This document shows positions 1,318 to 58,501 of a DNA stretch of 64,000 nt, in pieces. A program made the position numbers and the translations under genes. Under the pieces are notes generated by a model. It did no database searches, was not told the origin of the DNA, and saw only the letters and a list, made by a program, of their open reading frames with translations. This DNA is from Actinomycetota bacterium (GTDB taxonomy: Bacteria > Actinomycetota > Acidimicrobiia > Spongiisociales > UBA4744), in the NCBI GenBank assembly GCA_013152275.1, contig JAADGS010000092.1, positions 12,793 to 76,792 of the forward strand. The letters run 5' to 3'. Each line of letters begins with the position of its first letter. Within the stretch, counting starts at the first letter, position 1.

Positions 1318-3477
1318 GTGATGACCCGATTGAGATATCTCGTGGTCGGCGTTCTCGGATTGTTCCTCATTCTGTTGGTCGCAGGGTGCGACAACAAGGC
1401 CGCCGAGACGACCACGACGACGAGTCCACCACAGACCACAACCACAGCCACCGCTACCACAGCCCCGCCGACCGTCGAGCCGGCGGTGGAGATACCATTC
1501 CTCGCCGACTGGCAGGGATCCGGCCACGCCGATGCGAGCGCCGAGGCGTTCAATCACTGGAACGATGACGACCCGGCGATCATCCCCGCCCGCTGCGCGA
1601 AGTGTCACAGCACACCGGGCTTCCAGGACTACGTCGGCGCCGACGGCACCGCATTCGGGACGGTCGATGCCGACGCTGCGATCGGGACGACGGTGGAGTG
1701 CGTCGCCTGTCACAACGACGCGACCCTGAAACTCGACCATGTGACGATGCCTTCCGGTGTCGAACTCACCGGCCTCGACGCCGAGGCGCGATGCATGACC
1801 TGCCACCAGGGTCGGGCATGGAAGGGCACCGTGGACGAAGCCGTTCAGGGAATCGATGAGGACACGGTCTCCGAAGACCTCGGCTTCATCAACATCCACT
1901 ACTTCGCAGCGGCAGCGACCAAGTACGGGACCGTGACGAAGGGCGGCTACGAATACGACGGCAAGTCGTACGACGCGGTCTTCGCACATGTGGACGGATA
2001 CTCGACGTGTATCCAGTGCCACGATCAACACACGCTCGAACTCAAGGTCGACGAGTGCTCGACGTGCCACGCGGGAGTGTCGTCGGTCCAAGACCTCGAG
2101 AACATCCGGATGGCCGGCTCGGAAGTCGATTACGACGGCGATGGCGACATCACCGAAGGCATCGCCTCCGAGATCGAAGGTCTGCAAGAGAAGCTGTACG
2201 CAGCAATCCAGGCGTACGCCTCGTCCAAGGTCGGCACACCGATCGTCTACGCCGCAGAGTCGTACCCGTACTTCTTCGTCGACACGAACGCGAACGGCGA
2301 CGCCGACGGGGAGGAAGCCTCCTACGGCAACAAGTATGCGAGCTGGACCCCGCGACTCCTGAAGGCGACCTACAACTATCAGGTCTCCATCAAGGATCCC
2401 GGCGGGTATGCCCACGGCGGCAAGTACATCATCGAGCTGCTCGTCGACTCGACCGACGACCTGAACTCGGTGCTGTCATCGCCGATCGCCATGACCGACG
2501 TGCACCGCATCGACGCCGGCCACTTCGCAGGATCCGAAGCGGCGTTCCGCCACTGGGACAAAGACGGTGAGATCCCGGCGTCGTGCAGCAAGTGCCACTC
2601 GGCGACCGGTCTCCCGCTCTTCTTCAAAGAAGGCGTCACGATCGCGCAGCCGGTTTCCAACGGCCTCTTGTGCTCGACCTGCCACAGCGATCTGTCGACC
2701 TTTGATCGATACGAGGTTGCTTCGGTGACCTTCCCGAGTGGGGCAAAGATCGACAGCGGCAGCAACAACATGAACCTGTGCATGACGTGTCACCAAGGCA
2801 GGGAGTCGACCGTGTCGGTCGACAAGCTGATCGGCGACACGAAGGCCGATGTGGTGAGCGACTCGCTCCGGTTCCTGAACGTGCACTACTTCGCGGCCGG
2901 AGCGACGATCTTCGGAGACCAGGCGAAGGGCGCCTACGAGTACGCGGGCAAGACCTATGTCGGCTACAACGAGGATCACCCGCTGAACCAGTGCACCCAG
3001 TGTCACGATCAGCACGCCCTGGAAGTCCGGGTCGACAAGTGCTCGGCCTGTCACGGCACGGTCGCCACCGAGGACGACCTGCACGCCATCCGCATGTCCA
3101 GCATCGACTACGACGGTGACGGCGACACGACCGAAGGCATGTGGGACGAGATCCAAACCATGCGGGCCGACCTGCTCGCCGCCATCCAGGCCTACGCGGC
3201 CAAGACGGCGGGGGCCGAAGCGATCGTCTACGACCCGAACTCGTACCCGTACTACTTCATCGACACGAACGGCGATGGAGTGGCCGGCGCCGACGAGGCG
3301 AACTACGGAAACCGCTACGGCACATGGACACCCCGCTTGCTGCGGGCCGCGTACAACTATCAGTACGCGACGAAGGATCCGGGCGGGTTCGCCCACAACG
3401 GCGAGTACATCGTCCAGACCCTGTACGACAGCATCAAGGACGTCGGCGGCGATGTCTCGGGGATGACCCGACCGTAG
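1318..3477 (+). CDS. Decahaem c-type cytochrome lipoprotein with internal tandem duplication (two pentahaem modules, each followed by a ~150 aa haem-free domain)
   Basis: Signal peptide with lipobox LVAGC, then a Thr/Pro-rich linker (ETTTTTSPPQTTTTATATTAPPTVEP). There are 10 CxxCH motifs: CAKCH, CVACH, CMTCH, CIQCH, CSTCH, then CSKCH, CSTCH, CMTCH, CTQCH, CSACH. The two halves are clearly paralogous (e.g. ...RCMTCHQGRAWKGTVDEAV... versus ...LCMTCHQGRESTVSVDKL...; YPYFFVDTNANGD versus YPYYFIDTNGDGV). RBS GGAGG lies 8 nt upstream of the ATG. Confidence 0.9.
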   Translation: MMTRLRYLVVGVLGLFLILLVAGCDNKAAETTTTTSPPQTTTTATATTAPPTVEPAVEIPFLADWQGSGHADASAEAFNHWNDDDPAIIPARCAKCHSTPGFQDYVGADGTAFGTVDADAAIGTTVECVACHNDATLKLDHVTMPSGVELTGLDAEARCMTCHQGRAWKGTVDEAVQGIDEDTVSEDLGFINIHYFAAAATKYGTVTKGGYEYDGKSYDAVFAHVDGYSTCIQCHDQHTLELKVDECSTCHAGVSSVQDLENIRMAGSEVDYDGDGDITEGIASEIEGLQEKLYAAIQAYASSKVGTPIVYAAESYPYFFVDTNANGDADGEEASYGNKYASWTPRLLKATYNYQVSIKDPGGYAHGGKYIIELLVDSTDDLNSVLSSPIAMTDVHRIDAGHFAGSEAAFRHWDKDGEIPASCSKCHSATGLPLFFKEGVTIAQPVSNGLLCSTCHSDLSTFDRYEVASVTFPSGAKIDSGSNNMNLCMTCHQGRESTVSVDKLIGDTKADVVSDSLRFLNVHYFAAGATIFGDQAKGAYEYAGKTYVGYNEDHPLNQCTQCHDQHALEVRVDKCSACHGTVATEDDLHAIRMSSIDYDGDGDTTEGMWDEIQTMRADLLAAIQAYAAKTAGAEAIVYDPNSYPYYFIDTNGDGVAGADEANYGNRYGTWTPRLLRAAYNYQYATKDPGGFAHNGEYIVQTLYDSIKDVGGDVSGMTRP

Positions 3478-3495
3478 GGACCGCAACCCAAGCCG

Positions 3496-3523
3496 GAGGG
3501 GCCCGACGTATGTCGGGCCCCTC
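3496..3523. terminator. Perfect GC-rich hairpin (12-bp stem GAGGGGCCCGAC / GTCGGGCCCCTC, 4-nt loop) downstream of the decahaem gene; likely intrinsic (I-shaped) terminator
   Basis: Inverted repeat read directly from the sequence, 19 nt after the stop codon. There is no T-tract, as is common in high-GC actinobacteria. Confidence 0.6.
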
Positions 3524-3716
3524 TCGACAGGGAGCGCTCCCCTCCACGGGACGCCTCTCTCGTTCCATCCTTATGGTTCCGGTCCTGTGTCATCAGCACA
3601 CCTGATCAGCCTCTCTGATATACGACCATGAATGGGTCTTTTGGCCCTAGCCCAACGGGACGTCGACAAGAGAGTATCCCTTACAGATCCTGAGGATCGG
3701 AAGGAGGGACGGAGAT

Positions 3717-4913
3717 ATGAAACGATCCCTACTGCTGCTGGTAGTCGTTTTTGCAATGATTCTCGCCGCGTGTGCCGGACCGGCCGGCGACACAGGACCT
3801 GCAGGGCCCGCGGGGCCCCAAGGACCTGCCGGGCCGGCCGGACCTGCCGGACCCGCGGCGCCTGCCGCCGCAACCGTCGGAGCCGACTACGTGGGAACAC
3901 AGACGTGTGCCGGATGCCATCCGGACAACGCCGAGAAGTTCCTCAAGTCGGGACATCCGTACAAACTGAACAAGGTGGTCGACGGACAACCGCCGACGTA
4001 CCCGTTCACCGAGATCACCCAGGTTCCTGAGGGGTACACCTGGGACGACATCACGTACGTGATCGGTGGGTACAACTGGAAGGCCCGTTTCATCGGACTC
4101 GACGGTTTCATCATCACCGGCGACGAAAACGCCAAAACGCAGTACAACCTGCCGAACCCGACCATCGGGCTCGGAGACAATTGGGTCGCGTACCACGCGG
4201 GTCAACAGAAGGCGTATGACTGCGGTCCTTGTCATACGACGGGATACCGGCCCGAAGGCCATCAGGATGGACTCGAGGGGATTATCGGAACCTGGGCGGA
4301 GCCCGGGATCCAGTGTGAAGAGTGCCACGGCCCTGGAAGCAACCACGTGGCGGATCCGTATGGAGTCGCGATGAAGGTGGACGTGTCGTCCGAGGCATGT
4401 ACTTCATGTCACCGACGCGGGTCGACCCTGACGATCGACGCCAAAGGAGGATTCATCAAGCACCACGAGCAGGGTGAGGAGCTGTTGCAGACAAAGCACG
4501 CGTCCCTCAGCTGTGTCACGTGCCATGATCCGCATACAGGCGTCATCGCGCTACGTAAGGCCGGAGAGGACTTCGCAGCGAACTTCCCGTGTCAAACCTG
4601 CCACGAGGAACAGGCCGACTACCAGAAGTCGACCGTCATGTCGGGCTTCGTCAAATGCATCGACTGTCACATGCCACGGATCGTCAAGTCCGCGGTCGGT
4701 GATCCCGCTGCATGGACCGGCGACATCCGAACACACCTGTTCGCCATCGACCCCAACCTGACCAACCAGTTCTCCGAGGACGGCTCGGTAGCCAACTCGG
4801 CGATCACGCTGGATTGGGCCTGCAAGTCGTGTCACCGTGACGGTGGTACGGCGAGCGTCAAGACGGACGAGGAACTGAAGGCGACGGCCGAGGGATACCA
4901 CTCGAAACCGTAA
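3717..4913 (+). CDS. Octahaem c-type cytochrome lipoprotein with collagen-like (GPAGP)n N-terminal linker
   Basis: Signal peptide with lipobox ILAACAG, then GPAGDTGPAGPAGPQGPAGPAGPAGPAAPAAA. There are 8 CxxCH motifs: CAGCH, CGPCH, CEECH, CTSCH, CVTCH, CQTCH, CIDCH, CKSCH. RBS GGAAGGAGG precedes the ATG. Confidence 0.9.
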   Translation: MKRSLLLLVVVFAMILAACAGPAGDTGPAGPAGPQGPAGPAGPAGPAAPAAATVGADYVGTQTCAGCHPDNAEKFLKSGHPYKLNKVVDGQPPTYPFTEITQVPEGYTWDDITYVIGGYNWKARFIGLDGFIITGDENAKTQYNLPNPTIGLGDNWVAYHAGQQKAYDCGPCHTTGYRPEGHQDGLEGIIGTWAEPGIQCEECHGPGSNHVADPYGVAMKVDVSSEACTSCHRRGSTLTIDAKGGFIKHHEQGEELLQTKHASLSCVTCHDPHTGVIALRKAGEDFAANFPCQTCHEEQADYQKSTVMSGFVKCIDCHMPRIVKSAVGDPAAWTGDIRTHLFAIDPNLTNQFSEDGSVANSAITLDWACKSCHRDGGTASVKTDEELKATAEGYHSKP

Positions 4914-4965: not shown

Positions 4966-5070
4966 GCTTCTTCCACCTCCCCCTCGCTACGCTCACGTGG
5001 GAGCGCCACGAGACCTCGGGAGCGTCTGGCGCTCGGCGCGTCCTCCGGCGGGAACGCAACCCTCGATCCG

Positions 5071-5433
5071 ATGACGGGAGACCGGACAGTGGACCACACA
5101 GACATCGCCCGAACGCTGCAGGAGAGAAAGCGGGTTCTCGAGACAGAGTTGGCACACCTTGTCGAGCCTCCCGTCGCCGGAACGAACCTGTCCTTCGGAA
5201 AGCGAATCGGAGACGGGACCACCGAAGCGGTCGAGCGCATCAACACCACGGCGGCGGCACGTTCTCTCGCGGCCTCCCTCGCCGCCACCGACCGGGCGCT
5301 CGCCAAACTCGACGAGGGCACCTACGGCATCTGTGACCTCTGCGGCGACGCGATACCCCGGGAACGACTCGACGCCCGCCCCACGACGGCGACGTGTGTC
5401 GACTGCAGCCGACAGGGAACTGCCACCGGTTGA
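5071..5433 (+). CDS. TraR/DksA-family C4-type zinc-finger protein
   Basis: 120 aa with a C-terminal CDLCG...(17 aa)...CVDC four-cysteine finger and an N-terminal coiled-coil-like region. This matches DksA/TraR family architecture. Confidence 0.7.
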   Translation: MTGDRTVDHTDIARTLQERKRVLETELAHLVEPPVAGTNLSFGKRIGDGTTEAVERINTTAAARSLAASLAATDRALAKLDEGTYGICDLCGDAIPRERLDARPTTATCVDCSRQGTATG

Positions 5434-5460
5434 CGGCTCGCTGGGCTCGCCGTACTTCGT

Positions 5461-5497
5461 ATCTCGTATTTCGTACTTCGTATCGCTCGGCGCGCTC
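5461..5497. repeat. Heptanucleotide tandem array (CGTAYYT)x5 with GTAC phased every 7 bp
   Basis: The sequence reads cgtactt cgtatct cgtattt cgtactt cgtatcg. A second, longer copy of the same array is at 8457-8499. Confidence 0.7.
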
Positions 5498-5498
5498 C

Positions 5499-6656
5499 TC
5501 AGGCCTCATCCTGCTTTCCGGTGACCGGCAGCGGTACGGCTCGCCCCTCGGCGGCGCTCGTGAGAGCGGCGGCGAATATCCGGTGGCCGGCCAGCGCCTC
5601 TTCGGGAGTGGCACAACCGAATCGGTCGCCCAACTCGCCTGCCCTCTCGGTGAGAAACGCCGCCCACATCTGGAGCAGGGCATCAGGAAACCCGAACTCG
5701 AAGATGGATCCCGTGATGGTGGGGAAGACGGAAGCGTGTCCGGGCTGGATCTCTTCCCACATCTGCCGGCCCGACGGATCGATACGAAAGCGGCGCACGA
5801 TCTGGGGCGAACGGGTCGAGAAAGACACCCCGCCCTCCATGCCCAGCACTTCGAACGTCCAGGTGTTGGACTGGCCGGGAGCGATTCGCTTGGTCTCGAG
5901 ATGAAGCGGGAACGAACCCTCCGCAGAGTCGATGGTGCAGACGAGGGAGGCGTTGTCGATGGTGTCACAGGCGACCGGCTCACCGTTCGGTCCAGGCCGG
6001 TGGGTAACGATGTCCTGAAGGGTTGCGTACACCGAGGTGGGGAGCCACCCGAGCCGGAGCGGAACATGGACGACGTGCATACCGAGGTCCCCCATGACTC
6101 CGATCTCGCCACACGTGGCGACCTTGCGCTTCCAATTGATCGGCTTGTCCCGGTTCATGTCGGATGAGTGGAGCAACGCTGCGCGCGCCTCGATGATCTG
6201 GCCGAGACGACCGGAGGCGACCTCGGCCATCGCCATCTGCGCACCCGGGAAGAACGGCAGCTCCGACGAGCAGCGCGAGAAGACGCCCGAGTCTCCTACC
6301 GCGGTGACGATGGACTGCGCCGTCGGAAGGTCGATACCGAACGGCTTCTCCCCGAAGAGGTCGATGCCCGCATCGAGGACGTCACGGTAGATGGCGCCGT
6401 GAAGGACGTGTGGGACCGCAACGTACACGACGTCGAGGCCGGCCTCGATGAGCCGGGCGTGGTCACCGGTTGTCATCTCCACCGTGTCGATCTGCTCGAA
6501 CCAGGCTCTCCGCTCGGCGTCGATGTCGCAGACGGCGACGAGGCGGGGAACCACGGGAACGTCCAGGAGTGCCATCCAGCGACCGAACGCCGCGGCGGCC
6601 TCGCGGCCCATCAAGCCGCCACCGATGATCCCGACGCGTACCTGTCGAGCCATCAT
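5499..6656 (-). CDS. Gfo/Idh/MocA-family NAD(P)-dependent oxidoreductase
   Basis: N-terminal Rossmann motif MMARQVRVGIIGGGLMG with a typical GFO_IDH_MocA N and C domain arrangement. Its start overlaps the aldolase stop (ATGA). The longer ORF to 6875 is an Arg-rich antisense extension. Confidence 0.8.
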   Translation of the reverse strand: MMARQVRVGIIGGGLMGREAAAAFGRWMALLDVPVVPRLVAVCDIDAERRAWFEQIDTVEMTTGDHARLIEAGLDVVYVAVPHVLHGAIYRDVLDAGIDLFGEKPFGIDLPTAQSIVTAVGDSGVFSRCSSELPFFPGAQMAMAEVASGRLGQIIEARAALLHSSDMNRDKPINWKRKVATCGEIGVMGDLGMHVVHVPLRLGWLPTSVYATLQDIVTHRPGPNGEPVACDTIDNASLVCTIDSAEGSFPLHLETKRIAPGQSNTWTFEVLGMEGGVSFSTRSPQIVRRFRIDPSGRQMWEEIQPGHASVFPTITGSIFEFGFPDALLQMWAAFLTERAGELGDRFGCATPEEALAGHRIFAAALTSAAEGRAVPLPVTGKQDEA

Positions 6657-7483
6657 GCGGCGTCGAGATGCTCGACGGCCTCCTCGGGGGTCCAGCCTCG
6701 ATGAAGTATCCCCATCAGCGCCTGGGTGATGACGGCGGGCTTCGGATGCTGGACGATGTTCCGGCCGTACACGATCCCGGCCGCACCTTGCTCCAGGACG
6801 GCGGCCGTCCGCCGGAAGAGCTCGGCGGAATCGACCTTGCCGCCACCACGAACGAGAACCGGGATCGGTGCACATGCCTCGATCACGTCCCCGTAGCGGT
6901 CCGCCGGGTCGCTGGGATCCGCCTTCACGACGTCCGCTCCCAGCTCGACGGCCTGACGAGCCAGAGCCTTGATCCGGTCCACGTCGCGGACCCCGGTGTA
7001 GGCGCCTCCGTCGGGGCGCATCACCAGCGGCTCGACCATGAGCGGCATCGCCGCCAGGTCGCAGGCGGCGCGCAGTGCCATGACGTTACGAACGCACGCG
7101 CGGTGCAGCTCGGGGCGACCGTCGATGTCGAGGAGGTTCACGACCACGCACGCGGCGTCGAGCCGAACGGCCTGGCCCACCGCGTCCTCGATCAGCTCGG
7201 AGAACGGGCGGTCCGGCACGTCGGAGCCGTAGACGTTGGCGATGTCGGTCCGCAACACGAGCGCCGGTCGCGGGCGAACGGGCATCGACTGGAGAAGCCT
7301 CGCCTGCCCGGGAGAGAGTTGGATGGCGTCGGGTGCGGCTTCGACAAGGCTTGCGATGACGCTCGGCATGTGCGCGATGCCTTGAAGGAAGCCGGGCTCG
7401 TTGAAGAAGCCGTGGTCGACGGCCACGTCCAGGCAACGCTCGGAGACCGGATCGAACAGTCGGTGTAGCCGCGGGCCATTCAT
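6653..7483 (-). CDS. Class I aldolase of the DhnA/FbaB/LsrF family
   Basis: 276 aa. N-terminus RLHRLFDPVSERCLDVAVDHGFFNEPGFLQG resembles DhnA-type class I fructose-bisphosphate or sulfofructose-phosphate aldolases. Its ends overlap the adjacent kinase and oxidoreductase genes. Confidence 0.7.
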   Translation of the reverse strand: MNGPRLHRLFDPVSERCLDVAVDHGFFNEPGFLQGIAHMPSVIASLVEAAPDAIQLSPGQARLLQSMPVRPRPALVLRTDIANVYGSDVPDRPFSELIEDAVGQAVRLDAACVVVNLLDIDGRPELHRACVRNVMALRAACDLAAMPLMVEPLVMRPDGGAYTGVRDVDRIKALARQAVELGADVVKADPSDPADRYGDVIEACAPIPVLVRGGGKVDSAELFRRTAAVLEQGAAGIVYGRNIVQHPKPAVITQALMGILHRGWTPEEAVEHLDAA

Positions 7484-8445
7484 CTGTCTGGTTCCTCCAG
7501 CCCGGCCATGCGCCAGGCTTCGTCGGGATCGTTCAGTCCGGCGAATGTCTCGCTGGCGGTGGCTGCCAGGGCACCGAGGGCGGTGCCCAGCCGGACGGCT
7601 TTCGGCGATGGTAGGCCCCGCAGGAGGCCGATGAGGACACCGGCCGTGAAGGCGTCTCCTGCACCGGTACTATCGACCGAGTCGACCTCGATTGCGGCCA
7701 CATGGCCACGTGTCTCGTCACAGTCGAACCAGCAGCCGTCGACTCCGTCGGTGACGACGGCCACCCGCACCCCTCGCCGTCTCAGCTCGGCGGCGGCGTC
7801 CTCGGGAGCGGATTCGCCCGTGATCGCCCGAGCCTCGGCCAGACTGGGGCAGAACAGGTCGGTGTGGGCAAGAGCCGGGTTCACCAGGTCCCAGTCGTTG
7901 GCGGCGTTGTAGACGACGTCGAGGCTGGTCTGCATCCCGTTCCGCTTGGCGTGGGCGAAGAGCTCTGCAAGGGGCTCGCCGTCGAGTGCCGGCAGCACCA
8001 GCGCACCTCCGACGTGGAGAAACCGCCCTTTCGTCCGCTCACGGATGTGCTCGGCGGTGAGGAATCGGTTGGCTCCGATCTGATGGAAGATGGTGCGCTC
8101 ACCGGCGTCGTCGACCAGGATGGCCGACGACGAGGTGTTGGCGTCGACCTCCACCCATCGGGTGTCGAGCCTGTCGCCCTCCACCGACCGGCGGAGTACC
8201 TCGCCGAAGAGATCCGGGCCGACCGGAGCGATCAGCGTCGTGCCGACCCCCATGCCGGCGAGTGCCCTGGCGGTGCGAAGCGCGCATCCGCCTTCCACCA
8301 GTGTCAGGTCGTCGACCAGTTGCAGGAGGCCGAGCGGAAAGGGGTGGCGGACGGTGCGGACAACGACGTCGCACACCGCTATGCCGGCACAGGTCACCTC
8401 GACCGAGGTCACGGCATCACCGGCGAATCGCCGGCGGTCGGGCAT
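7480..8445 (-). CDS. PfkB-family carbohydrate (sugar/sugar-acid) kinase
   Basis: Ribokinase-like fold motifs: an N-terminal di-Gly region, and the C-terminal DSTGAGDAFTAGVLIGLL anion-hole/ATP motif. The likely start is MPDRRRF at 8445, because the upstream part of the ORF covers the heptamer repeat. Confidence 0.8.
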   Translation of the reverse strand: MPDRRRFAGDAVTSVEVTCAGIAVCDVVVRTVRHPFPLGLLQLVDDLTLVEGGCALRTARALAGMGVGTTLIAPVGPDLFGEVLRRSVEGDRLDTRWVEVDANTSSSAILVDDAGERTIFHQIGANRFLTAEHIRERTKGRFLHVGGALVLPALDGEPLAELFAHAKRNGMQTSLDVVYNAANDWDLVNPALAHTDLFCPSLAEARAITGESAPEDAAAELRRRGVRVAVVTDGVDGCWFDCDETRGHVAAIEVDSVDSTGAGDAFTAGVLIGLLRGLPSPKAVRLGTALGALAATASETFAGLNDPDEAWRMAGLEEPDR

Positions 8446-8456
8446 TCGAGAGACTC

Positions 8457-8499
8457 CGTACTTCGTACTTTGTATCTCGTACTTTGTACTTCGTATCGC
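8457..8499. repeat. Heptanucleotide tandem array (YGTAYYT)x6, second copy; lies 12 bp upstream of the PfkB kinase start
   Basis: The sequence reads cgtactt cgtactt tgtatct cgtactt tgtactt cgtatcg. It shares the flanks ccgtacttcgta...tcgtatcgc with the 5461 copy. Confidence 0.7.
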
Positions 8500-8569
8500 G
8501 ACCTCGCGTCGATGCAAGACCGTGGGGCGGGCGTGGCCGCTCCCACGGACGACCGATCACCGACGACCG

Positions 8570-10135
8570 TCAATACCCCTGCGCCGGGGTGTGACACTGC
8601 GTGCACTTGATCTGTTTCCACGCGTCTCCGATGTCGACAGGATGCTGGAAGGCAAGACCGGCCACGCTGTTCTCGATGTCGGCGAGGTTGTCCGAGGGGC
8701 CCTGGGCGGCGATCGTATGACACGAGTTGCACGAAGAGGAGATCCGTGTCCCGTCATCGCTCTCCAGATCCGAGAAGTGGCACCGGAAACAGCCGTCGTT
8801 GACAAAGTGGCTGAGGTTGTCCTCGCGGGCCCGGTAGTCGGTCTTCATCTCCGGGAAGAAGTTGGCGTCGTAGATGCGCACCAGGGTGTCGGCGGCCTTC
8901 TCGACCTGGCCCTGATCCACCTTGCCGGGATACTGCTTCGCGTAGTAGGCCAGGAGCCCGGACCGGATCGCCTCGTCTGCCTCCGGTTTCGTGTCATATG
9001 GCGCGTTGAGCAAGGTCAGCCCCTGCCAGCGGACGAACGGGAGGTCCTTGGAGATCGTGCCCTTGGTCATCTCGAGGTTGATCGCCGTCGCCGGAGGGAG
9101 GAAGTCGTGACTGGGCCGGTTGTGGCAGTCCATGCAGTCCAAGATACGAACTTCGACGTCGGGCGAATCGGGATCGACCACCGCATCGGGACGCTTGAAG
9201 ACGGTGACCTTCCCCGTCTCGCCGTCCGTGAACCGCACCCAGATCATCTGCTGGCGCTTCTTGTCGGTCGTCACGTATTCGATCTTGTTCTCGCCGAGCA
9301 TGTGCCAGTGGATGCCCTCCTGCTTGCCGGTTCGGGGGTTCCCCCCACCGACTTTCATGAGCAGACTGATCGTCCACGGCGAGTTCGCCTCGTTGGTCCG
9401 GTAGTACGTTTTCGTGACGAGCTTCTCGCCATAGAACTGATCGGGCCAGTGGCATCCCTCACAGGTCTGTTGAGCAGGTCGCAGACTCGTCACCGGTGTC
9501 GGCACGGGACGGTCGTACGAGTTGGTCAGCACCGCCACCACCTGGCGGATACCGTCGATCTTGGCGCGCACGAAGAACGATGCGCCGGGGCCGATGTGGC
9601 ACTCTGCACAGGCGACGCGAGCGTGCGGAGACTGCTGATAGGTGACCCACTGTGGGTTCATCACCGTGTGGCACGCCTCCCCGCAGAACGTTGCGGAGTC
9701 GGTGACTTCGTACCCCTTGTAACCACCCCAGGCGACCGTGCCGAGCAACATCGCCGTGAGGATGCCGAACAGCGCAAGGGAGCGCATGTACCGGGGGTTC
9801 GACGGCTCGAACCGAAGGTTGAACCGGACGTGTTCTCCGCGCCGGCGAGCCCTGACGACCTGGATGCGGATGGCGAGCAGGAAGAGGATGAGGCCGAGCA
9901 GAACCACCGAGGGAAAACCGATGAATGTGACGAGTCCTCGATACGGGTTGCCGGCGGGTGAACTCAGGTCGACGAATGCGAGGATGGCGAACCCGAGTAT
10001 CCCGGCGACGACGAGCGCGCCGCCCACCGCAGCCAAAGGATGGCGGTAGAGGCTCCTGCCCTCGACCGCCTCGGCCTTGGTCTCGCTCTCCCTGTCACTC
10101 ACGCTCGATCCCTCCTCAACCGATCTCTGATCCAC
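8570..10135 (-). CDS. Membrane-anchored heptahaem c-type cytochrome (N-terminal TM helices plus 7 CxxCH); ImcH-like putative quinol oxidase
   Basis: Two N-terminal hydrophobic helices (ALVVAGILGFAILAFV; VTFIGFPSVVLLGLILFLLAI; SLALFGILTAMLLGTVAW). The 7 CxxCH motifs are CGEACH, CAECH, CEGCH, CMDCH, CFRCH, CNSCH, CTQCH. It is the last gene of the minus-strand cytochrome operon. Confidence 0.85.
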   Translation of the reverse strand: MDQRSVEEGSSVSDRESETKAEAVEGRSLYRHPLAAVGGALVVAGILGFAILAFVDLSSPAGNPYRGLVTFIGFPSVVLLGLILFLLAIRIQVVRARRRGEHVRFNLRFEPSNPRYMRSLALFGILTAMLLGTVAWGGYKGYEVTDSATFCGEACHTVMNPQWVTYQQSPHARVACAECHIGPGASFFVRAKIDGIRQVVAVLTNSYDRPVPTPVTSLRPAQQTCEGCHWPDQFYGEKLVTKTYYRTNEANSPWTISLLMKVGGGNPRTGKQEGIHWHMLGENKIEYVTTDKKRQQMIWVRFTDGETGKVTVFKRPDAVVDPDSPDVEVRILDCMDCHNRPSHDFLPPATAINLEMTKGTISKDLPFVRWQGLTLLNAPYDTKPEADEAIRSGLLAYYAKQYPGKVDQGQVEKAADTLVRIYDANFFPEMKTDYRAREDNLSHFVNDGCFRCHFSDLESDDGTRISSSCNSCHTIAAQGPSDNLADIENSVAGLAFQHPVDIGDAWKQIKCTQCHTPAQGY

Positions 10136-10201
10136 GCTAGTCGATCGGCCCTCACCGGCCTCACGACCGACCGTCTCTTCTTGTCGAACCTGTTCCTCGA
10201 A

Positions 10202-11461
10202 TCAGCCTTGCGGCGCGCCGGCGCCGATCCATGCCTTCACCAACGCCAGGTCCTCGTCCGTGAACTTGCCGAAATGCGACCCGTCCCCCACTTTGACGAT
10301 CACATGGCTCGCATCCGCATCACCGGCCACGAACCCGGGCTCACCACTATCACCCCCGGCCAGCAACCCCGCATACGACGTAACGTCCAGACCGGAGGCC
10401 GGCGCACTGCCACCGTGACATGACCCGCACGCCGCCTCGAACACCGCCGCCACACCGGAGTTCCATGTCACGCCGGCAGAAGCCGCCGTGGTCGAGGGCG
10501 TCGCAGCCGACGTGGTCGCCGACGCGGCCGCGGTCGTCGTCGGAGCCGCGGTCGTCGGTGGAAGGGTCGTCGTGGGAGGCGTGGTCGACGGTGGAAGGGT
10601 CGTCGTCGGCAGCGGCGTGTAGATGGGTCCGGCGAGCGGCGAAGGCGCGACGGTCGTGATCGCCGTCTGCTCGAACGTCACGAACTCGTAGACCCCCATC
10701 AGCATCACGGCGGCCAGGACGGTGAAGGCCGGCCAGTACCTGAGCGCTCGGTTGCGTCGCTCCTCGGGATCGGTCTCGATCCGATCCGTTTCCGCGTCGA
10801 TCGTGGCCAGTTCGAGCGGGTGGAGCTCTTTCATCTGGGCACGCGACAGGTACCCGGTGAAGATCGAAGGGTTGAAGTGCCGCCAATGGACGTCGTAGGA
10901 GTGCCAGACGATGATGGCCAGCACGGCGAGGACCGCCTCCCAACCGTGGGCCGCCTTGGCCGCCGGCACGAAGACCCCCGGGAGGAACCGGGTGGTGGCG
11001 ATCGGATTCCAGAGCATGAAGCCGGTCACCGCCATCAGTACGGTGCCCCACACCAGCGACCAGTACTCCATCTTCTCGCCGACCGTATACCGGCCCTCGG
11101 GAGGCGGGCCCGACGCCAAACCGAGGTTGAACCTGATCCAGCCCCACGCGGCCGACAGGTCCGCCTTCCCCGGGATCAGCGAATGGGGTCTGCGGAGCAC
11201 GAAGCGCTTGTAGCCCAGCACACCGAGGTGGTACACGAGCGAGAGCAGCAGAATGGTTGCGAGAATGTGGTGGATTCTGCGGGTGTAGTCGATCCCTCCG
11301 AAGAGCCCGATGATCCAGTCCGAGAACCAGCGGTCGGCGTATTTCTGCACCAGTCCGGTGATCGCCAGACCGGTGAACGTGATGACCTGGACGGCGTGCT
11401 CGATCCGGTCCGACACCGTGAACCTCAGGATCTTCTCGTCGGGACGCGTCGTCTCAGTCAT
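10202..11461 (-). CDS. Dihaem cytochrome b (FdnI/HydC/CybH-like membrane domain) fused via a Pro/Thr-rich linker to a C-terminal monohaem cytochrome c domain
   Basis: The N-terminal ~250 aa has 4-5 TM helices with conserved His residues (RIEHAVQV, RRIHHILATI, AAHGWEAV...VWHSYDVHWRH). The linker reads PLPTTTLPPSTTPPTTTLPPTTAAPTTTAAASATTSAATPSTTAASAG. The C-terminal domain carries CGSCHG. The start overlaps the nonahaem gene end by 8 nt. Confidence 0.85.
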   Translation of the reverse strand: MTETTRPDEKILRFTVSDRIEHAVQVITFTGLAITGLVQKYADRWFSDWIIGLFGGIDYTRRIHHILATILLLSLVYHLGVLGYKRFVLRRPHSLIPGKADLSAAWGWIRFNLGLASGPPPEGRYTVGEKMEYWSLVWGTVLMAVTGFMLWNPIATTRFLPGVFVPAAKAAHGWEAVLAVLAIIVWHSYDVHWRHFNPSIFTGYLSRAQMKELHPLELATIDAETDRIETDPEERRNRALRYWPAFTVLAAVMLMGVYEFVTFEQTAITTVAPSPLAGPIYTPLPTTTLPPSTTPPTTTLPPTTAAPTTTAAASATTSAATPSTTAASAGVTWNSGVAAVFEAACGSCHGGSAPASGLDVTSYAGLLAGGDSGEPGFVAGDADASHVIVKVGDGSHFGKFTDEDLALVKAWIGAGAPQG

Positions 11462-12554
11462 GTCGTCGCCTCCTGAGGCGAGCGGCGAGCCTTCTCCGCA
11501 CGTCGAGTCCCACGGCGAGGAGCATCGCGCCGATCACGAGCGGGATGAGGATCTTGTAGAACATGTTCACCCAGTACACGAGCGGGGCCTCGGTGGTGCT
11601 CGGCGCATAGTGACTCAGCCATGCGTCGGGGAAGTTCGCCGTGGCATCCGGGTGGCACCGCCGGCACGTGCCGAGCAGATTCTTCTTGTACACGGAGCTG
11701 TCCGTGTCGCTGGGCGCCTTGATGTCATGAACACCGTGACAATCGACGCACACGGGCTTGTTCGTGTCCTGACCGGGAGCCAGCTTCTCGAAGAGAACGA
11801 CCGTCGTGCCGTGAAAGTCCGACAGGTACGAACTGAACACGTTCGTGGAGATGCCGTACTTGTCCATCAGGGCCTTGTTGGCGTGACAGTCCGCGCAGAT
11901 CTGCGGCGAGAACAGCCGGAACGGCGAATCGTCATGCGGACCCTTCACGTCATGGACGCCGTGACAGTCCGTGCAGGTCGGGACGTCCGGGTTGCCGGTC
12001 GTGAGCGCCTCCCCGTGCACGCTGTCCTCGTAGGCGTTGTAGATCTCCGAATGACATTTCCTGCACATCAGCGGAATGTTGGTTCGAGGCTCGCCGGGCG
12101 GTTGGACGTTGTGGGAACCGTGGCAGTCGGTGCAGACGGCCGCCTCCGTGACGCCGGCCTGGCGTGCGAGCTCGTGGTCGCTGTCGCGAGTCCCCGTGTA
12201 CTCGGAGTAGTGGCACGTCGCACAGGACGTATACATCTGTAGCGTGAAGCCGCGGCGGCTCTCGGCGGTGATCGGAGCGTGCGGATACGTGGAGATGTCC
12301 GTGTGACAGAGAACGCACGCCACATCGAGCTTGCCGTGAACCGAATCGGCGTACTCGTGACCGTCGACGGCAATGTCGAGCGTCTCCCCCGAGGGCAGTG
12401 GTATTCCCAGCGAGCTTCCCTCGTGACAGGAGAGACAGTAGGAGTTGTCCCACCGAGGGTCGGTCTGCGCGGCTGCCCGAGATTGCCCACCGAGCAGGAT
12501 CGCCGTACCGATGATCAGTGCACCGAGTACAACGATCCTTCTACATCTTTGCAT
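11454..12554 (-). CDS. Nonahaem c-type cytochrome, secreted, with a C-terminal transmembrane anchor
   Basis: Sec signal peptide (cleavage near AAAQT). The 9 CxxCH motifs are CLSCH, CVLCH, CATCH, CTDCH, CRKCH, CTDCH, CADCH, CVDCH, CRRCH. The C-terminal hydrophobic helix ILIPLVIGAMLLAVGL is followed by RRRLAARLRRRRHD. Confidence 0.9.
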   Translation of the reverse strand: MQRCRRIVVLGALIIGTAILLGGQSRAAAQTDPRWDNSYCLSCHEGSSLGIPLPSGETLDIAVDGHEYADSVHGKLDVACVLCHTDISTYPHAPITAESRRGFTLQMYTSCATCHYSEYTGTRDSDHELARQAGVTEAAVCTDCHGSHNVQPPGEPRTNIPLMCRKCHSEIYNAYEDSVHGEALTTGNPDVPTCTDCHGVHDVKGPHDDSPFRLFSPQICADCHANKALMDKYGISTNVFSSYLSDFHGTTVVLFEKLAPGQDTNKPVCVDCHGVHDIKAPSDTDSSVYKKNLLGTCRRCHPDATANFPDAWLSHYAPSTTEAPLVYWVNMFYKILIPLVIGAMLLAVGLDVRRRLAARLRRRRHD

Positions 12555-19119: not shown

Positions 19120-19565
19120 TCGAACGGTCCTTTCACAACCAGGACGTCACACGGCGAGATGTGCACGATCCTGTGACTCGTACTGCCCAGCACCAACGCT
19201 GCGAGCTCCCCCCTCCCCCGGGAGCCGACAACGATGAGGTCTGCCTCCACCTTCTTCGCGTACTCGACGATCGCGTCCGCCGGATACCCGTCCAGGTCGA
19301 CCCGGTGCATTTGCACCGACGCTCCTTCGACCACCGGATCGATGACGTCCCACACCATCTGGCGCTGCGCCTGCTCCAGTGATGCGAGGTCTGCGGGCAC
19401 CTGGCTGAGGGCGCCGAGAAGGGCGCTGGGAATATGCATGACGTGTATGACGTGCAGCTCGGCGCCCCACGCCTCGGCGAACTGGACCGCCCTCCGAAGC
19501 GCCACGGTCGAACGATCGGATCCATCCGCTCCGACGACGATGATCATGACAATGCATCTCCCCAC
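19116..19565 (-). CDS. Universal stress protein (UspA family)
   Basis: Motifs IIVVGADGSDRS...LIVVGSRGRGELAALVLGSTSHRIVHISPCDVLVV are typical of USP. The true start may be the internal MIIVV (19547). Confidence 0.85.
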   Translation of the reverse strand: MGRCIVMIIVVGADGSDRSTVALRRAVQFAEAWGAELHVIHVMHIPSALLGALSQVPADLASLEQAQRQMVWDVIDPVVEGASVQMHRVDLDGYPADAIVEYAKKVEADLIVVGSRGRGELAALVLGSTSHRIVHISPCDVLVVKGPFE

Positions 19566-20230
19566 TGCTCGGGTGCGTACTCCCGTTCCCGTTTGGCCGC
19601 CAGGCGGGCCGAGAACGCAGCCGCTTCCGTCCGCCGGGTCATCCCAAGTTTGTTGAGCAGGTTCGAGACGTAGTTCTTGACCGTCTTCTCGGCCAGGAAC
19701 AACCTCTCGGCGATCTCCTTGTTCGTAAGACCCTCGGAGATCAGGTCCAGGATGTTGCGCTCCTGCGGTGAGAGGCGCGCGATCAGCGGGTCGGTCGGTT
19801 CGTCGCCCCGAATCCTGCGGAAGACATGCTCGGTCATCGTCGGATCGAGCAGCGACTCTCCCGCCCCGACCCGGCGGATACTGTCGATGAGCTGACGCGC
19901 ATCGACCCTCTTGAGCACGTAGCCGGCCGCCCCGGCGACGATCGAGGCGAACAGCGCCTCCTCATCGGCAAACGACGTCAGCATCAGAACACGCACCTCG
20001 GGCCACCGCTCCCTGATCTCCCGGCACGCCTCGATCCCGGTTCCGTCCGGAAGGCGCACATCCATCACCACGACTTCGGGAGAGTCGTATCCGACCCTCC
20101 GGATGGCCTCCTCGGCCGTCCCCGCCTCGCCCACCACTTCGAGGCCTTCCTCGCCTTCGAGCAGCATGACGAGGCCCTTCCTCACGATCTCGTGGTCATC
20201 GACGATCAGTATCCGCAATCTGCCTTCCTC
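19544..20230 (-). CDS. NarL/LuxR-family two-component response regulator (DosR/DevR-like)
   Basis: REC domain LRILIVDDHEIVRKGL...VVMDVRLPDGTGIEA...LMLTSF. C-terminal HTH LuxR (LSPQERNILDLISEGLTNKEIAERLFLAEKTVKNYVSNLLNKLG). TTG start with GGAGGAAGG RBS at ~20230. The longest ORF to 20956 is antisense to the kinase gene region. Confidence 0.85.
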   Translation of the reverse strand, partial: EEGRLRILIVDDHEIVRKGLVMLLEGEEGLEVVGEAGTAEEAIRRVGYDSPEVVVMDVRLPDGTGIEACREIRERWPEVRVLMLTSFADEEALFASIVAGAAGYVLKRVDARQLIDSIRRVGAGESLLDPTMTEHVFRRIRGDEPTDPLIARLSPQERNILDLISEGLTNKEIAERLFLAEKTVKNYVSNLLNKLGMTRRTEAAAFSARLAAKREREYAPEQWGDALS

Positions 20231-20389
20231 CTTACCCCCAAGGCTACCGGGTGATCGTTCCTGTCGCTGCCACCGGCGGCCGGTCATCGGGCGACAGCCG
20301 GTCGTCGGCGGGTAGAAATCGCGACGCTCGCCCCACGGTCCTGGTGCCGGACAGGTCGCGATACCGGGTACCCGGAAGGTCACTAGCCT

Positions 20390-21511
20390 ATGCATGTGGA
20401 CCGACCGACGATCCCGGCCTCGCGCCTCGCCGATCTCATCAGTGCCGCCGCGGCGGTGACCGGACAAACCGAGCTGACGGCCGTGCTGGAAACCGTTGTC
20501 GCAACGGCCAAGGAACTCACCGGTGCGCCGTTCGGTGCGCTCGGTGTCGTCAGCGAGAAAGGGCAGCTGATCCAGTTCGTCCATCAGGGCGTCCCGGAGG
20601 AGATCGTCGAGATGATCGGCGGCCCGCCGGAGGGCAAGGGGCTGCTCGGCGCAGTCACGTGGCAGCCCGACCCTATCCGGCTCGACCGCACGCAGACGCA
20701 CCCACGAGCGACCGGGTTTCCCGATCATCACCCCAAGTTCGAAGGTTTTCTCGGCACGTCGATCCGTATCGGCGAAGACATCTTCGGCAATCTCTACCTG
20801 GGAGCGTCCGACGGCGGCTTCACCGAGCAGGACGAGACGCTGATTCGCGCGCTGGCCCTCATCGCGGGGTCCGCCATCTCCACGATCCGCGTTCAGGCGC
20901 GTCTGCGCAGGGCAGCGGTCCTCGAAGACCGCCAGCGCATCGCCCGGGATCTGCACGACTCCATCATCCAGGATCTCTTCGCCGTCGGTCTGTCACTCCA
21001 GGCGTTGACCGCCAAGCTGGTCGACCAGGAGATGCGGGAGCGCCTCGAAGAAGCCGCTTCGCACCTCGATGCTTCGATCACCTCGTTGCGACGGTTCATC
21101 TTCGATCTCCGCCCCCCGACGTTGGGCGCGCGCAACCTCAAGGACGAACTCTCCGAGCTGCTGGGGCGGCTCGCCGTCCCCTACGAGGCGAGCATCGGGA
21201 TCGGCGTCACCGGGCCGGTCGACGACCTGCCCAATGAGATCATCGAAGACACGCTCCACATCATCCGGGAGGCGGTGAGCAACGCGTTGCGGCACTCCGG
21301 AGCGGATGTCGTGAGTGTCTCGGTGAGCCGCGGCATCGATCGGCTGGTCCTCGCTGTCTCCGACCGTGGGAAGGGGTTCGATCTCGAAACCGTCACACGG
21401 GGAATGGGTCTCGACAACATCCGCAGCCGTGCCGAAACGGCGGGTGGAGAAGCCGACATCACCAGCCGTCCCGGTGGGGGGACGACCATCCGGGTCGTGC
21501 TTCCCCTGTAG
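20390..21511 (+). CDS. GAF-domain sensor histidine kinase (HisKA_3/NarX-type, DosS/DosT-like)
   Basis: N-terminal GAF domain. H-box ARDLHDSIIQDLFAVGL. HATPase_c N, G1 and G2 boxes (EAVSNALRHSGA, DRGKGF, GMGLDNIRSRAETAGG). It is divergent from the response regulator. Confidence 0.85.
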   Translation: MHVDRPTIPASRLADLISAAAAVTGQTELTAVLETVVATAKELTGAPFGALGVVSEKGQLIQFVHQGVPEEIVEMIGGPPEGKGLLGAVTWQPDPIRLDRTQTHPRATGFPDHHPKFEGFLGTSIRIGEDIFGNLYLGASDGGFTEQDETLIRALALIAGSAISTIRVQARLRRAAVLEDRQRIARDLHDSIIQDLFAVGLSLQALTAKLVDQEMRERLEEAASHLDASITSLRRFIFDLRPPTLGARNLKDELSELLGRLAVPYEASIGIGVTGPVDDLPNEIIEDTLHIIREAVSNALRHSGADVVSVSVSRGIDRLVLAVSDRGKGFDLETVTRGMGLDNIRSRAETAGGEADITSRPGGGTTIRVVLPL

Positions 21512-26739: not shown

Positions 26740-28013
26740 GGAATTGTCGCAGGTGAGGTCGCCGAAAGCACGTCCACGACCGCGTGCTCCCCGTTGGTGA
26801 TGCGGATCACCCGATATGGGCGGCCGAACACCGTGTGGGTGTCTTTCGAGAAGGAGATCGGTCCGGCAACCCCCGGGAAGTTCTTGAGGTTCTCCAGGAA
26901 GCCGGCGAGTGCCTGCCCGTCGGTGCCACCGGTCGCCTCGATCGCCGCGGCTATGGCCTTTGCGGCATCGGCTCCGCCGACGAATCCACCGGTGGTGGGT
27001 TTCGAACCCGCCGCATCCATCCGTGCGATCAGATCGGTCACCTCGGGAGAAGGATCATCACCGAACACGGACGCATACGTCACGTAGTAGAAGTTCGACA
27101 GGTCCTTCGGCACCCAGTACGCACCGTCGCACGCCCAGGAGCAGAGAATGGGCTTGTTGTCGGCCAGACTCCGGTCCGCGGTCACGAATCCGGGCAGATC
27201 GTTGAAACTGGTCGAGATCGCCACGACGTCGGCCTGGGTGTTGGCTACGGACGATGCCACGTTTCCGATGGTCCCGTCACCGTTGGTGAAGTTCTCCTCC
27301 AGAACGATCTCGCCGCCAAGCTCGACGAACCGCTGCTTGAACGCATCGACGACATTCTGGAAGTACACCAGCATGTTGTCGCGAACGATCACGGCCGTCT
27401 TCCATCCCTGACCGATGGCATACTCGGCCATCGCCGCGCCCTCGTCCTGAGCCTCGTTCCCGAAGCTGAATGCGAGATTCCCCGCCTCGCCGAAGCGCTT
27501 GGGTCCCATCTGGTCGGTTCCGATGCACGGCGCCACGGTCAGCAGACCGGCCTCGAGACCGACCTGGATCGCCGGAGTGGCGATGTCGACGTCGCACGTC
27601 ACCCAGATCACGCTGGCGCCGTCCGCCACATCTCCTGTCGCGGCCGCCTTGTACTGCTCTGCCACGGCCTGAGTATCCGTTTGGACGAACTTGAACTGGC
27701 GGCCATCCACGCCACCCGCCGCATTCGTGTCATCGAAGATCAGCTTGCCCGCCAGGGCGGCCGGTGCATCGAACGGAGCCATGAAGCTCGTGAGGTCGAT
27801 GGCGGCGCCGACCATGATCGGCTTTGCGGGAACGGTGGTCGTCGTAGCCTCCGTCGTGGCCGTCGTGGCCGTTGTCGTGGCCGTCGTGGCCGCTGTCGTG
27901 GCCGTCGTGGCCGCTGTCGTGGCGGTCGTGGTGGCTGTCGATCCGCCACTGCACGCAGCCGCCAACAACGCCATCGCCACCACCATGATTCCGATCAAAC
28001 TCCGCATGCGCAT
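26736..28013 (-). CDS. HAAT-family ABC substrate-binding lipoprotein (LivJ/LivK-like; amino acid/amide specificity unknown) with long Thr/Ala linker
   Basis: Lipobox LLAAACSG, then TATTTATTAATTATTAATTATTTATTATTEATTTT, then a periplasmic_binding type I fold. It is the first gene of operon 1. Confidence 0.85.
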   Translation of the reverse strand: MRMRSLIGIMVVAMALLAAACSGGSTATTTATTAATTATTAATTATTTATTATTEATTTTVPAKPIMVGAAIDLTSFMAPFDAPAALAGKLIFDDTNAAGGVDGRQFKFVQTDTQAVAEQYKAAATGDVADGASVIWVTCDVDIATPAIQVGLEAGLLTVAPCIGTDQMGPKRFGEAGNLAFSFGNEAQDEGAAMAEYAIGQGWKTAVIVRDNMLVYFQNVVDAFKQRFVELGGEIVLEENFTNGDGTIGNVASSVANTQADVVAISTSFNDLPGFVTADRSLADNKPILCSWACDGAYWVPKDLSNFYYVTYASVFGDDPSPEVTDLIARMDAAGSKPTTGGFVGGADAAKAIAAAIEATGGTDGQALAGFLENLKNFPGVAGPISFSKDTHTVFGRPYRVIRITNGEHAVVDVLSATSPATIP

Positions 28014-33247: not shown

Positions 33248-34462
33248 TCAGCCGGCAACCAGGGTGTACGCCCCACCCTTGATCTGGAAGATGAAGAACT
33301 TCGCTCCCTCGAGATCACCGTTGCTCGTGAACTTGATGGGCTGTCCGAGAATCGACGTAGACAGGTCGGTCGCGCCGATCGCGGCAACCACCGCTCCTCG
33401 ACTCAACGCGGTCCCGGAATCGCACACGCTCTTCATCGCGGTCATGACGACATTGGCGGCAGCGAAGGTGGGGGGACCGAACGTCCCGAACTCGCCGTAC
33501 TGCTTCCCATAGTCGTCGACCAGTGCTGCATCGGCCGAGATGTTCTTGATATCTGGAGCGAACGCCGAGACGTATGCCCCTTCGATCGTGAAGTCCTGCG
33601 GAGAGAACAACCCGTCCGATCCGAAGATGATCGCCTTCTTCCCTTGGGCTTGCATCTGCTGGCCGAAGAGTTCCGCATTCGCCGCAATCTGCCAGGGAAG
33701 GAACACAACATCCGTGTCGGCCGAGATCTTCGCCACGAGAGACGAGTAGTCGGTCTGGTCCCGACTCACCGAGTCGCGGGCGACGGTCACGTTCGCGGCA
33801 TCGAGGGCCGCTGCAACCGCATCCGCGAGGCCGGTGGAGTACGAAGTCTGATCGTCGATGATGAAGACCTTCTTCGCTCCGAGCTGCGACATCATGAAGT
33901 TGGCATCCGTCGGCCCCTGAACGTCGTCACGCGGAACCACCCTGAAGAATGTGGGATAGGTGCCGTCGGTCAGGTCCGTCCTCGTCGCCGACATCGATAC
34001 GAAGGCGAGATCGGCCTTTGTGAACAGGGGTCCGATCGCCTGCACGCTCTGGCTGCCGGCCGGTCCGACCACTCCCATGACATCCGCCGACGAGACGAAC
34101 TGCTGGGCCACCGTCGAGGCCTGGGCCGGATCCAACTGTGTGTCACCCTCGACGATCTCGAACTCCGTGCCGTTGGCGGTATTGAACCGGTCCACTGCGA
34201 ACTTCGCCCAGTTCAGCTGCTCGACCCCGATCGAAGCCGCAGGCCCGGTGATCGGCGCCATCACACCTATCTTGGCGACACATGCCGTGGCCATCGTCGT
34301 TGTCGTCCCTGCGGTCGTCACGGTGGATGCGGGGGCCGCCGTCGTCGTGGGGGCCGCCGTCGTCGTGGTCGTCGCCGTCGTCGTGGTCGTCGTGCCGCCT
34401 GTGCTACAGGCCGCTGCAACGAGCGCGAGCACAGCGATGAATCCGAGTATCCGTTTGTTCAT
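33248..34462 (-). CDS. HAAT-family ABC substrate-binding lipoprotein (operon 2) with Thr-rich linker
   Basis: Start MNKRILGFIAVLALVAAACS (lipobox), then a linker TGGTTTTTTATTTTTAAPTTTAAPASTVTTAGTTTT, then a Peripla_BP_6-like domain. Confidence 0.85.
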   Translation of the reverse strand: MNKRILGFIAVLALVAAACSTGGTTTTTTATTTTTAAPTTTAAPASTVTTAGTTTTMATACVAKIGVMAPITGPAASIGVEQLNWAKFAVDRFNTANGTEFEIVEGDTQLDPAQASTVAQQFVSSADVMGVVGPAGSQSVQAIGPLFTKADLAFVSMSATRTDLTDGTYPTFFRVVPRDDVQGPTDANFMMSQLGAKKVFIIDDQTSYSTGLADAVAAALDAANVTVARDSVSRDQTDYSSLVAKISADTDVVFLPWQIAANAELFGQQMQAQGKKAIIFGSDGLFSPQDFTIEGAYVSAFAPDIKNISADAALVDDYGKQYGEFGTFGPPTFAAANVVMTAMKSVCDSGTALSRGAVVAAIGATDLSTSILGQPIKFTSNGDLEGAKFFIFQIKGGAYTLVAG

Positions 34463-46599: not shown

Positions 46600-46602
46600 G
46601 AC

Positions 46603-52725: not shown

Positions 52726-56286
<3,561 letters not shown>

Positions 56287-58438: not shown

Positions 58439-58501
58439 TGCCGAAACGATAGCGGACCGCCGTTGCCGGTGCCCACCCGGGCAACATGCACGCAGCAAGG
58501 A

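Follow-up and report, generated by a model that had tools for sequence, protein, structure and literature searches.

Two GTAC-phased heptamer arrays bracketing a sugar operon are probably copies of a simple-sequence repeat duplicated around an insertion

Introduction

Why should a short phased motif built on GTAC recur as tandem arrays at two places of a genome that is rich in GC? We addressed this question for a locus of an uncultured hydrothermal actinobacterium, a MAG labelled 'Actinobacteria bacterium' (GXP34_14220), using a 64-kb stretch of its DNA (the window, i.e., the whole stretch that was analysed) with a GC content of 64.9%, against 41-43% in the arrays. An earlier note on this DNA had proposed that the arrays may be a cooperative binding site for a regulator, a slippage-prone contingency locus, or members of a small dispersed repeat family. 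A point missing from it is that the arrays lie on either side of the three genes pfkB, deoC, and gfo and hence bracket this sugar operon as direct repeats. The reading that we favour, with moderate confidence, is that they are two copies of an ordinary heptanucleotide simple-sequence repeat (SSR), whose duplication as direct repeats round an insertion was followed by homogenisation. We consider a dedicated regulatory switch less probable than such a duplicated SSR.

Results

Both arrays are composed of the unit YGTAYYT on the plus strand, with no variation at GTA or the final T and with pyrimidines at the other positions. TRF called a period of 7 for them, and their head-to-tail 7-nt units exceed chance, as in an SSR: the three-unit pattern YGTAYYTYGTAYYTYGTAY matched seven times in the window against 0.02 expected from shuffles, and a looser pattern, GTAYNNNGTAYNNNGTAY (GTAY every 7 nt, one mismatch), matched array 1 and array 2 only. 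No third copy of the array was found within the 64-kb window. The two arrays had been recognised before, although the first had been placed at 5461-5497, about 10 nt higher than its true position of 5451-5485.

The two arrays lie on the same strand and have their first 12 and last 9 bases in common (CCGTACTTCGTA ... TCGTATCGC), and the earlier statement that their flanks are identical is correct. They are 92% identical over 36 nt without gaps, or identical at 33 of 35 positions when one unit is counted as an indel. This identity of 92-94%, together with a common order of units, suggests that the two copies of the window were homogenised later. Their unit numbers, five versus six, had been taken as a sign of instability, but this compares two different loci and is by itself not evidence of it.

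Array 1 is located in the 65-nt spacer between the stop codons of the dksA-like gene (5433) and the oxidoreductase gene (5499), starting 17 nt past the former and ending 13 nt short of the latter, and thus between convergent gene ends, as had been noted. Array 2 ends 11 nt from the annotated ATG of pfkB, with GGAG adjoining. Its description as lying just upstream of the PfkB start holds for this ATG, but the start supported by homology is the conserved GTG, which lies 11 codons inside the annotated gene and 45 nt away from the array (310 aa, against 321 aa from the ATG); the extra codons fall in the remnant of an upstream gene (Table 1).

Table 1. Features of the locus, in window coordinates
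Feature	Position	Strand	Remarks
Multihaem cytochromes	1318-3477, 3717-4913	+	
DksA/TraR-type zinc-finger protein	5071..5433	+	Convergent with the cassette; with cyt521 where the site is empty
Spacer CGGCTCGCTGGGCTCGC	5434..5450	+	Between the dksA stop and array 1
Array 1	5451..5485	+	Five heptamers: CGTACTT CGTATCT CGTATTT CGTACTT CGTATCG
Gfo/Idh/MocA oxidoreductase (gfo)	5499..6656	-	ATG 6656 overlaps the deoC stop
DeoC/LacD-family aldolase (deoC)	6653..7483	-	
PfkB-family sugar kinase (pfkB)	7480..8445	-	Annotated ATG 8445; start conserved in relatives GTG 8412
Remnant, 3' end of the ~306-aa gene before pfkB in the native operon	8413..8456	-	Alignment with L127-L129
Array 2	8457..8498	+	Six heptamers: CGTACTT CGTACTT TGTATCT CGTACTT TGTACTT CGTATCG
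42-nt tail of the duplicated segment CGACCTCGCGTCGATGCAAGACCGTGGGGCGGGCGTGGCCGC	8499..8540	+	In the window only beside array 2
Second, unrelated heptamer tract	8548..8569	+	GACGACC GATCACC GACGACC, beside the cyt521 stop
Multihaem cytochrome cyt521 (NapC/NirT-like)	8570..10135	-	Its stop codon bounds the ancestral spacer on the other side
Three cytochrome genes, cyt521 among them	8570-12554	-	

The locus is surrounded by multihaem cytochrome genes in two convergent sets (1318-4913 and 8570-12554), which include a fusion of cytochrome b with a PSCyt1 domain. Such multihaem cytochrome content is unusual for an actinobacterial MAG, and related loci occur in many metagenomes (L132-L149). The unrelated heptamer tract beside cyt521 is also present in a sister species described below, there as CGGTCAT units. 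Elsewhere in the window are a cluster for a CO-dehydrogenase-like molybdenum enzyme (46141-50412) with an adjoining GntR regulator, a pyruvate:ferredoxin oxidoreductase (52726-56103), and a gene for the compatible-solute enzyme mannosylglycerate synthase (61280-62488). Two Peripla_BP_6 genes carry N-terminal in-frame tandem repeats (27835-27940, 21 nt × 5; 34331-34394, 18 nt × 3), which probably encode linker repeats.

The origin of the cassette was examined by alignment with the native form of the sugar operon (L127-L131), in which an overlapping gene of about 306 aa precedes the kinase gene and sugar-transport genes lie around, with a ROK regulator in L129-L131. The arrays are absent from these native operons. 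In both the window and the sister species, the approximately 45 nt upstream of the conserved pfkB start align with the 3' end of the upstream gene, and homology to the native operons L127-L129 runs through this remnant and ends at array 2 (alignment A3). On the other side, homology ends just past the gfo stop codon, beside array 1 (alignment A4). The arrays are therefore located at both breakpoints, as repeats of the same orientation exactly at the two junctions of the inserted segment. The C terminus of gfo appears to have been changed by the deletion that put array 1 beside its stop codon. The GC content of the cassette is 67.5%, versus 63-64% in its flanks.

A relative with an empty site was found in four sequences (L509-L512), where dksA (81% identical) and cyt521 (83-86%) are convergent and approximately 95 nt apart, without the cassette. 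A heptamer tract starts 18 nt past the dksA stop codon there, compared to 17 nt for array 1 in the window; two samples carry it as (AGTTGCC)3 and two as (AGTTGCC)2, with AGTGATC AGTGGCG coming next. Because its unit differs, homology of this tract to the arrays cannot be shown, and because the spacer does not align with the arrays, it is not a product of recent excision. We infer that the event was an insertion of the cassette rather than a deletion. More distant cytochrome loci (at most 63% identity) were likewise without cassette and without arrays, and the more distant dksA homologues (P0116-P0118) were found in unrelated contexts and were uninformative.

A nearly identical strain was represented by L508 (JGI 3300003886), a metagenome contig of 2.2 kb covering the array 1 side, in which cyt398 DNA is 99.4% identical and DksA 97% identical to those of the window. 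Its array 1 reads CATACTT GGTACTT CGTACTT GGTACTT CGTATCG, with the same unit number as in the window and changes at 6 of the 35 positions, one of which hits the otherwise invariant G. It is followed by 42 nt, of which 34 match the right flank of array 2 in the window, and then by the gfo 3' end. The 42-nt tail is kept at the array 1 equivalent of the sister species too. Since the tail stands beside array 1 in both relatives, the duplicated segment extends over about 80 bp (the array plus 42 nt), and the tail was later lost on the gfo side in the window. Identity between L508 and the window falls abruptly from about position 5412, a drop that takes in the last seven dksA codons. The stretch from there to array 1 (5412-5450, compared with 1972-2001 in L508) forms a mosaic boundary, where the window has the spacer CGGCTCGCTGGGCTCGC with a 9-nt duplication and L508 has CGGCTCGC.

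Junctions of this kind would also be expected if the arrays were recombination sites that are still active, i.e., if direct repeats of about 40-85 bp allowed the 3-kb cassette to be excised, reinserted, deleted, or amplified in tandem, through homologous recombination or a trans-acting recombinase, with the dosage or presence of the cassette varying in the population. The exact placement of the direct repeats at both junctions, the related lineage with an empty site, the recent homogenisation of the two copies in the window, the abrupt loss of identity at the junction between nearly identical strains, and the GC content of the cassette relative to its flanks are all consistent with it. However, neither an integrase or transposase domain, among about 55 ORFs scanned, nor a tRNA was found, and an imperfect identity over 35-42 bp makes a poor substrate for RecA. 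In addition, no alignment was obtained between the repeats and the spacer of the empty site, and no circular junction, amplified form, or variant arrangement was seen. We regard continued activity of the repeats as distinctly unlikely.

The turnover of the arrays was followed further in a sister species, bacterium BMS3Abin02 (L121-L126), which was recovered by a homology search with PfkB (87% identical). Synteny is conserved at the locus, where the sister has an array at each of the two equivalent positions but with different units. On the pfkB strand, array 2 of the window reads GCGATAC GAAGTAC AAAGTAC GAGATAC AAAGTAC GAAGTAC, whereas its sister counterpart, array 2', reads GCGGTGC GAACCAC GAGGTAC CAGGCAC CAGGTAC CCGGTAC, and array 1' reads GCGCTAC GAGGTAC GAGGAAC. 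Unit numbers are thus six versus approximately six for array 2 and five versus approximately three for array 1. The positional pairs of arrays are 64-67% identical between the two species, compared to 76-78% at the four-fold sites of five genes (77%). In array 2, 11 of the 14 differences have A or T in the window and G or C in the sister. These comparisons suggest that purifying selection on the unit sequence is absent.

Array 1' is located approximately 380 nt beyond the gfo stop codon, beside the dksA end. The interval holds a 29-bp tandem repeat, CATTCCCTCCCCCRGCGAGGGCCGGCAAA (L121 8940-9230; also L122-L124), which is hairpin-like (CCCTC...GAGGG), occurs in 3, 5, 5, or 9 copies across assemblies, and is followed by a two-copy repeat of about 58 bp. 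Neither of these is found in the window.

Variation in unit number bears on the proposal of a contingency locus, in which slippage would alter the number of heptamers upstream of pfkB and switch the operon on or off. A tandem 7-nt repeat near a gene start would suit it, as would the perfect tract at the equivalent position in the empty-site relative, with two copies in some samples and three in others. The label of a slippage-type repeat is indeed a fair one, and this variable tract supports it: turnover is seen both there and in the changes between L508 and the window. But the arrays themselves have imperfect units, and they showed no variation in length. Array 2 lies upstream of the start, outside any reading frame, and no promoter spacer was recognised there. 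Array 1 of the 97%-identical strain has as many units as that of the window, and in the sister, the arrays do not differ among the assemblies that cover them, six for array 2' and four for array 1', whereas the adjacent 29-bp repeat ranges between 3 and 9 copies. The contingency part of the proposal therefore found no support, and we consider such a switch highly improbable.

A further possibility is that the arrays are operators. By analogy with the ω system, a multimeric protein encoded elsewhere might bind them cooperatively, with one dimer per heptamer, repressing or insulating the start of the operon and blocking read-through at its end. Five and six contiguous 7-bp units would be enough, given that ω needs at least four heptads (PMC9499535), and tandem sets of heptanucleotides have been predicted as sites of a global regulator in Geobacter metallireducens (PMC2700814). 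Array 2 abuts GGAG and the pfkB start, there is no terminator between the operon and the upstream cytochrome genes, the sister has retained the period and a core resembling GTAC, and each genome has its own flavour of unit at both arrays. Against this, no regulator gene and no small ribbon-helix-helix or Par gene was found near the arrays, whose neighbours encode cytochromes, the DksA/TraR-type protein, and sugar enzymes. The nearest local regulators in the window are of the LuxR-type response regulator (19544-20956), GntR (45171-45866), and ArsR (58157-58498) kinds, and none of them is linked to the arrays. Promoters were not recognised either: a search of positions 5000-9000 yielded no match to a σ70-like promoter or an intrinsic terminator, and no TANNNT-type -10 element was seen by eye on the pfkB strand. 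Moreover, there are only two sites in 64 kb, the duplicate extends 42 nt past the array, which an operator does not need, and the unit diverges from that of the sister below the level of neutral sites and from that of a nearly identical strain at 6 of 35 positions. With no adjoining regulator gene and a unit that is not conserved between close strains or species, the cooperative regulator array of the earlier note, like operators of this kind in general, seems unlikely to us, if somewhat less so than active recombination sites.

Recognition at the level of the GTAC tetranucleotide was considered as well. GTAC occurs 189 times in the window against 211 expected and is therefore not avoided, and a cluster for restriction-modification or methylation was rejected.

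The arrays could also act in the mRNA of the operon, where (GAAGUAC)n in the 5' leader and after the last gene might be recognised by an oligomeric RNA-binding protein or the ribosome and tune translation or stability. The UAC/GUA triplets are spaced by 7 nt, and both arrays face the same way with respect to the operon, with array 2 directly beside the Shine-Dalgarno sequence; in the Beggiatoaceae, TAACTGA heptamers upstream of start codons have been proposed as sites of a translational regulator (PMC4679880). However, a search for structured RNA gave no Rfam match at E ≤ 1, and the z-scores of folding were not significant (-0.6 to -1.4). The unit sequence is not conserved, and array 1' of the sister is far from the gfo stop codon, by the dksA end. 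An RNA element is accordingly a very unlikely explanation. A Rho-utilisation site on the pyrimidine-rich strand cannot explain both copies, because only array 1 would be transcribed in that sense.

Searches outside the locus bore on a dispersed family, either REP- or MITE-like, of which the window would hold two copies. Degenerate heptamer arrays of a like kind do occur in many genomes: a degenerate four-unit pattern matched at least 120 loci in diverse genomes, and among the matches listed, 71 were intergenic and 58 genic, with no preferred orientation. Two control patterns with permuted cores (GAT, AGT) were as abundant in viral contigs, among the matches listed. These controls and the mixed contexts indicate that the matches across phyla are generic heptamer repeats and not a family. 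A dispersed element containing GAAGTAC heptads is known from an Akkermansia MAG and might be cited for such a family, but in the window both copies in 64 kb lie at the junctions of one insert, as the two ends of one duplicated segment. Within the 64 kb of the window, the proposal of a small dispersed repeat family thus fails to gain support, and we judge it to be scarcely probable.

The Akkermansia element, in MAG CAYRJI01 (L045 1-1700; also L002, L021, L048, L062, L064), is an intergenic repeat of GAAGTAC/GAGGTAC heptads with conserved flanks (…GGGAAGTACGAAGTACGAGGTACGAAGTACGAAGTAGCAGAGC…), present in several copies per contig.

Discussion

The following course of events would account for a duplicated SSR round an insertion. 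An ancestral heptamer repeat would have occupied the short spacer that separates cyt521 from the dksA-like gene convergent with it. A piece of three genes, pfkB-deoC-gfo, would have been cut from a larger sugar operon and placed in this spacer, with about 80 bp of it (the array and 42 nt) coming to flank the insert as direct repeats, possibly by single crossover of a circular intermediate or by replication-based duplication. In the lineage of the window, a deletion may then have removed the 42-nt tail and the gfo end on one side and left the array there, and gene conversion is the simplest way in which the two array copies may have become alike once more. Apart from this, the arrays would change fast by slippage and substitution, and a dedicated regulator would not be needed. 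If an AT-rich tract by the ribosome-binding site affects the expression of pfkB, this would be a side effect. No recombinase to explain the insertion was found among the ORFs scanned in the window.

Some of the observations speak against a neutral reading. Two lineages with differences at 23% of their four-fold sites both retain an array at each junction, and the sister still has the 7-nt period and a (G)TAC core (GAGGTAC CAGGCAC CAGGTAC CCGGTAC). Such persistence could reflect function and not inertia. The flavour of the unit in each genome is common to both arrays, and co-evolution with a binding protein would give the same pattern. Finally, array 2 is located where a repressor or a translational regulator would act. 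It is thus conceivable, although unlikely, that the heptamer-containing direct repeats are functional, either as recombination sites without a recombinase of their own or as paired arrays coated by a heptad-binding protein. In the former case, the 3-kb sugar cassette would undergo excision, reinsertion, or amplification despite carrying no recombinase. In the latter, the captured operon would be insulated from the cytochrome operons on both sides, and the unit would co-evolve with the protein in each species. Arrays that bind a protein or move the cassette would, if true, be a rare case of chromosomal heptad-array recognition, in an uncultured hydrothermal actinobacterium.

If the duplicated SSR is the correct explanation, the locus is a clean small example of the capture of an operon piece into a new chromosomal site, one that still displays the two junctions and the duplicated target and for which a relative preserves the empty site. 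The locus further illustrates how a conspicuous phased motif of a GC-rich genome can arise as a by-product of SSR dynamics rather than as the site of a regulator.

Among the known systems, the heptads of ω (ParB of pSM19035) are the obvious counterpart of a protein-binding array. They have the sequence 5'-WATCACW-3' and occur in 7-10 contiguous copies that overlap promoters, each bound by one dimer in a cooperative manner (PMC9499535). The arrays of the window resemble them in their contiguous, gapless 7-bp units, at least four in number. However, the window arrays differ in the sequence of the unit, in having all units in one orientation, and in their chromosomal metabolic setting with no ribbon-helix-helix or Par gene nearby. 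Other sets of heptamers have been described in Beggiatoaceae and Cyanobacteria, where a function was proposed for TAACTGA repeats (PMC4679880), and in G. metallireducens (PMC2700814). These sets are similar in having two to six tandem intergenic heptamers, often just upstream of start codons. Their sites number in the tens to hundreds in a genome and have a conserved unit, in contrast to the two sites and the fast-changing unit of the window. Phase-variable contingency loci share a short tandem repeat upstream of a gene, but the window arrays have imperfect units and no visible variation in length, and they belong to a metabolic operon of an environmental actinobacterium.

Closer matches are provided by two other systems. 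Like the attL/attR-like repeats of genomic islets and Campbell-type integration, the arrays are same-orientation repeats at both junctions of a 3-kb foreign segment, and a relative has the empty site; they differ from them in that no recombinase or tRNA target was found and that the repeat is composed of an SSR and spacer sequence with no recognisable att core. Heptanucleotides form the commonest class of 5- to 11-nt repeat units in most prokaryotic genomes, with slippage given as the cause, according to the summary of Mrázek 2007 given in PMC4679880. As far as that summary goes, the long SSRs of this class (Mrázek et al. 2007) consist of head-to-tail 7-nt units, are mostly intergenic, occur sporadically, with Actinobacteria among those reported, and are attributed to polymerase slippage, all of which resembles the present arrays, as does the copy-number polymorphism of the tract at the equivalent position in a relative. 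The window differs in its imperfect units and in the fact that two copies bracket an inserted operon within a direct duplication of about 80 bp. The arrays belong to known kinds, being at once a heptanucleotide SSR and direct repeats flanking an insertion.
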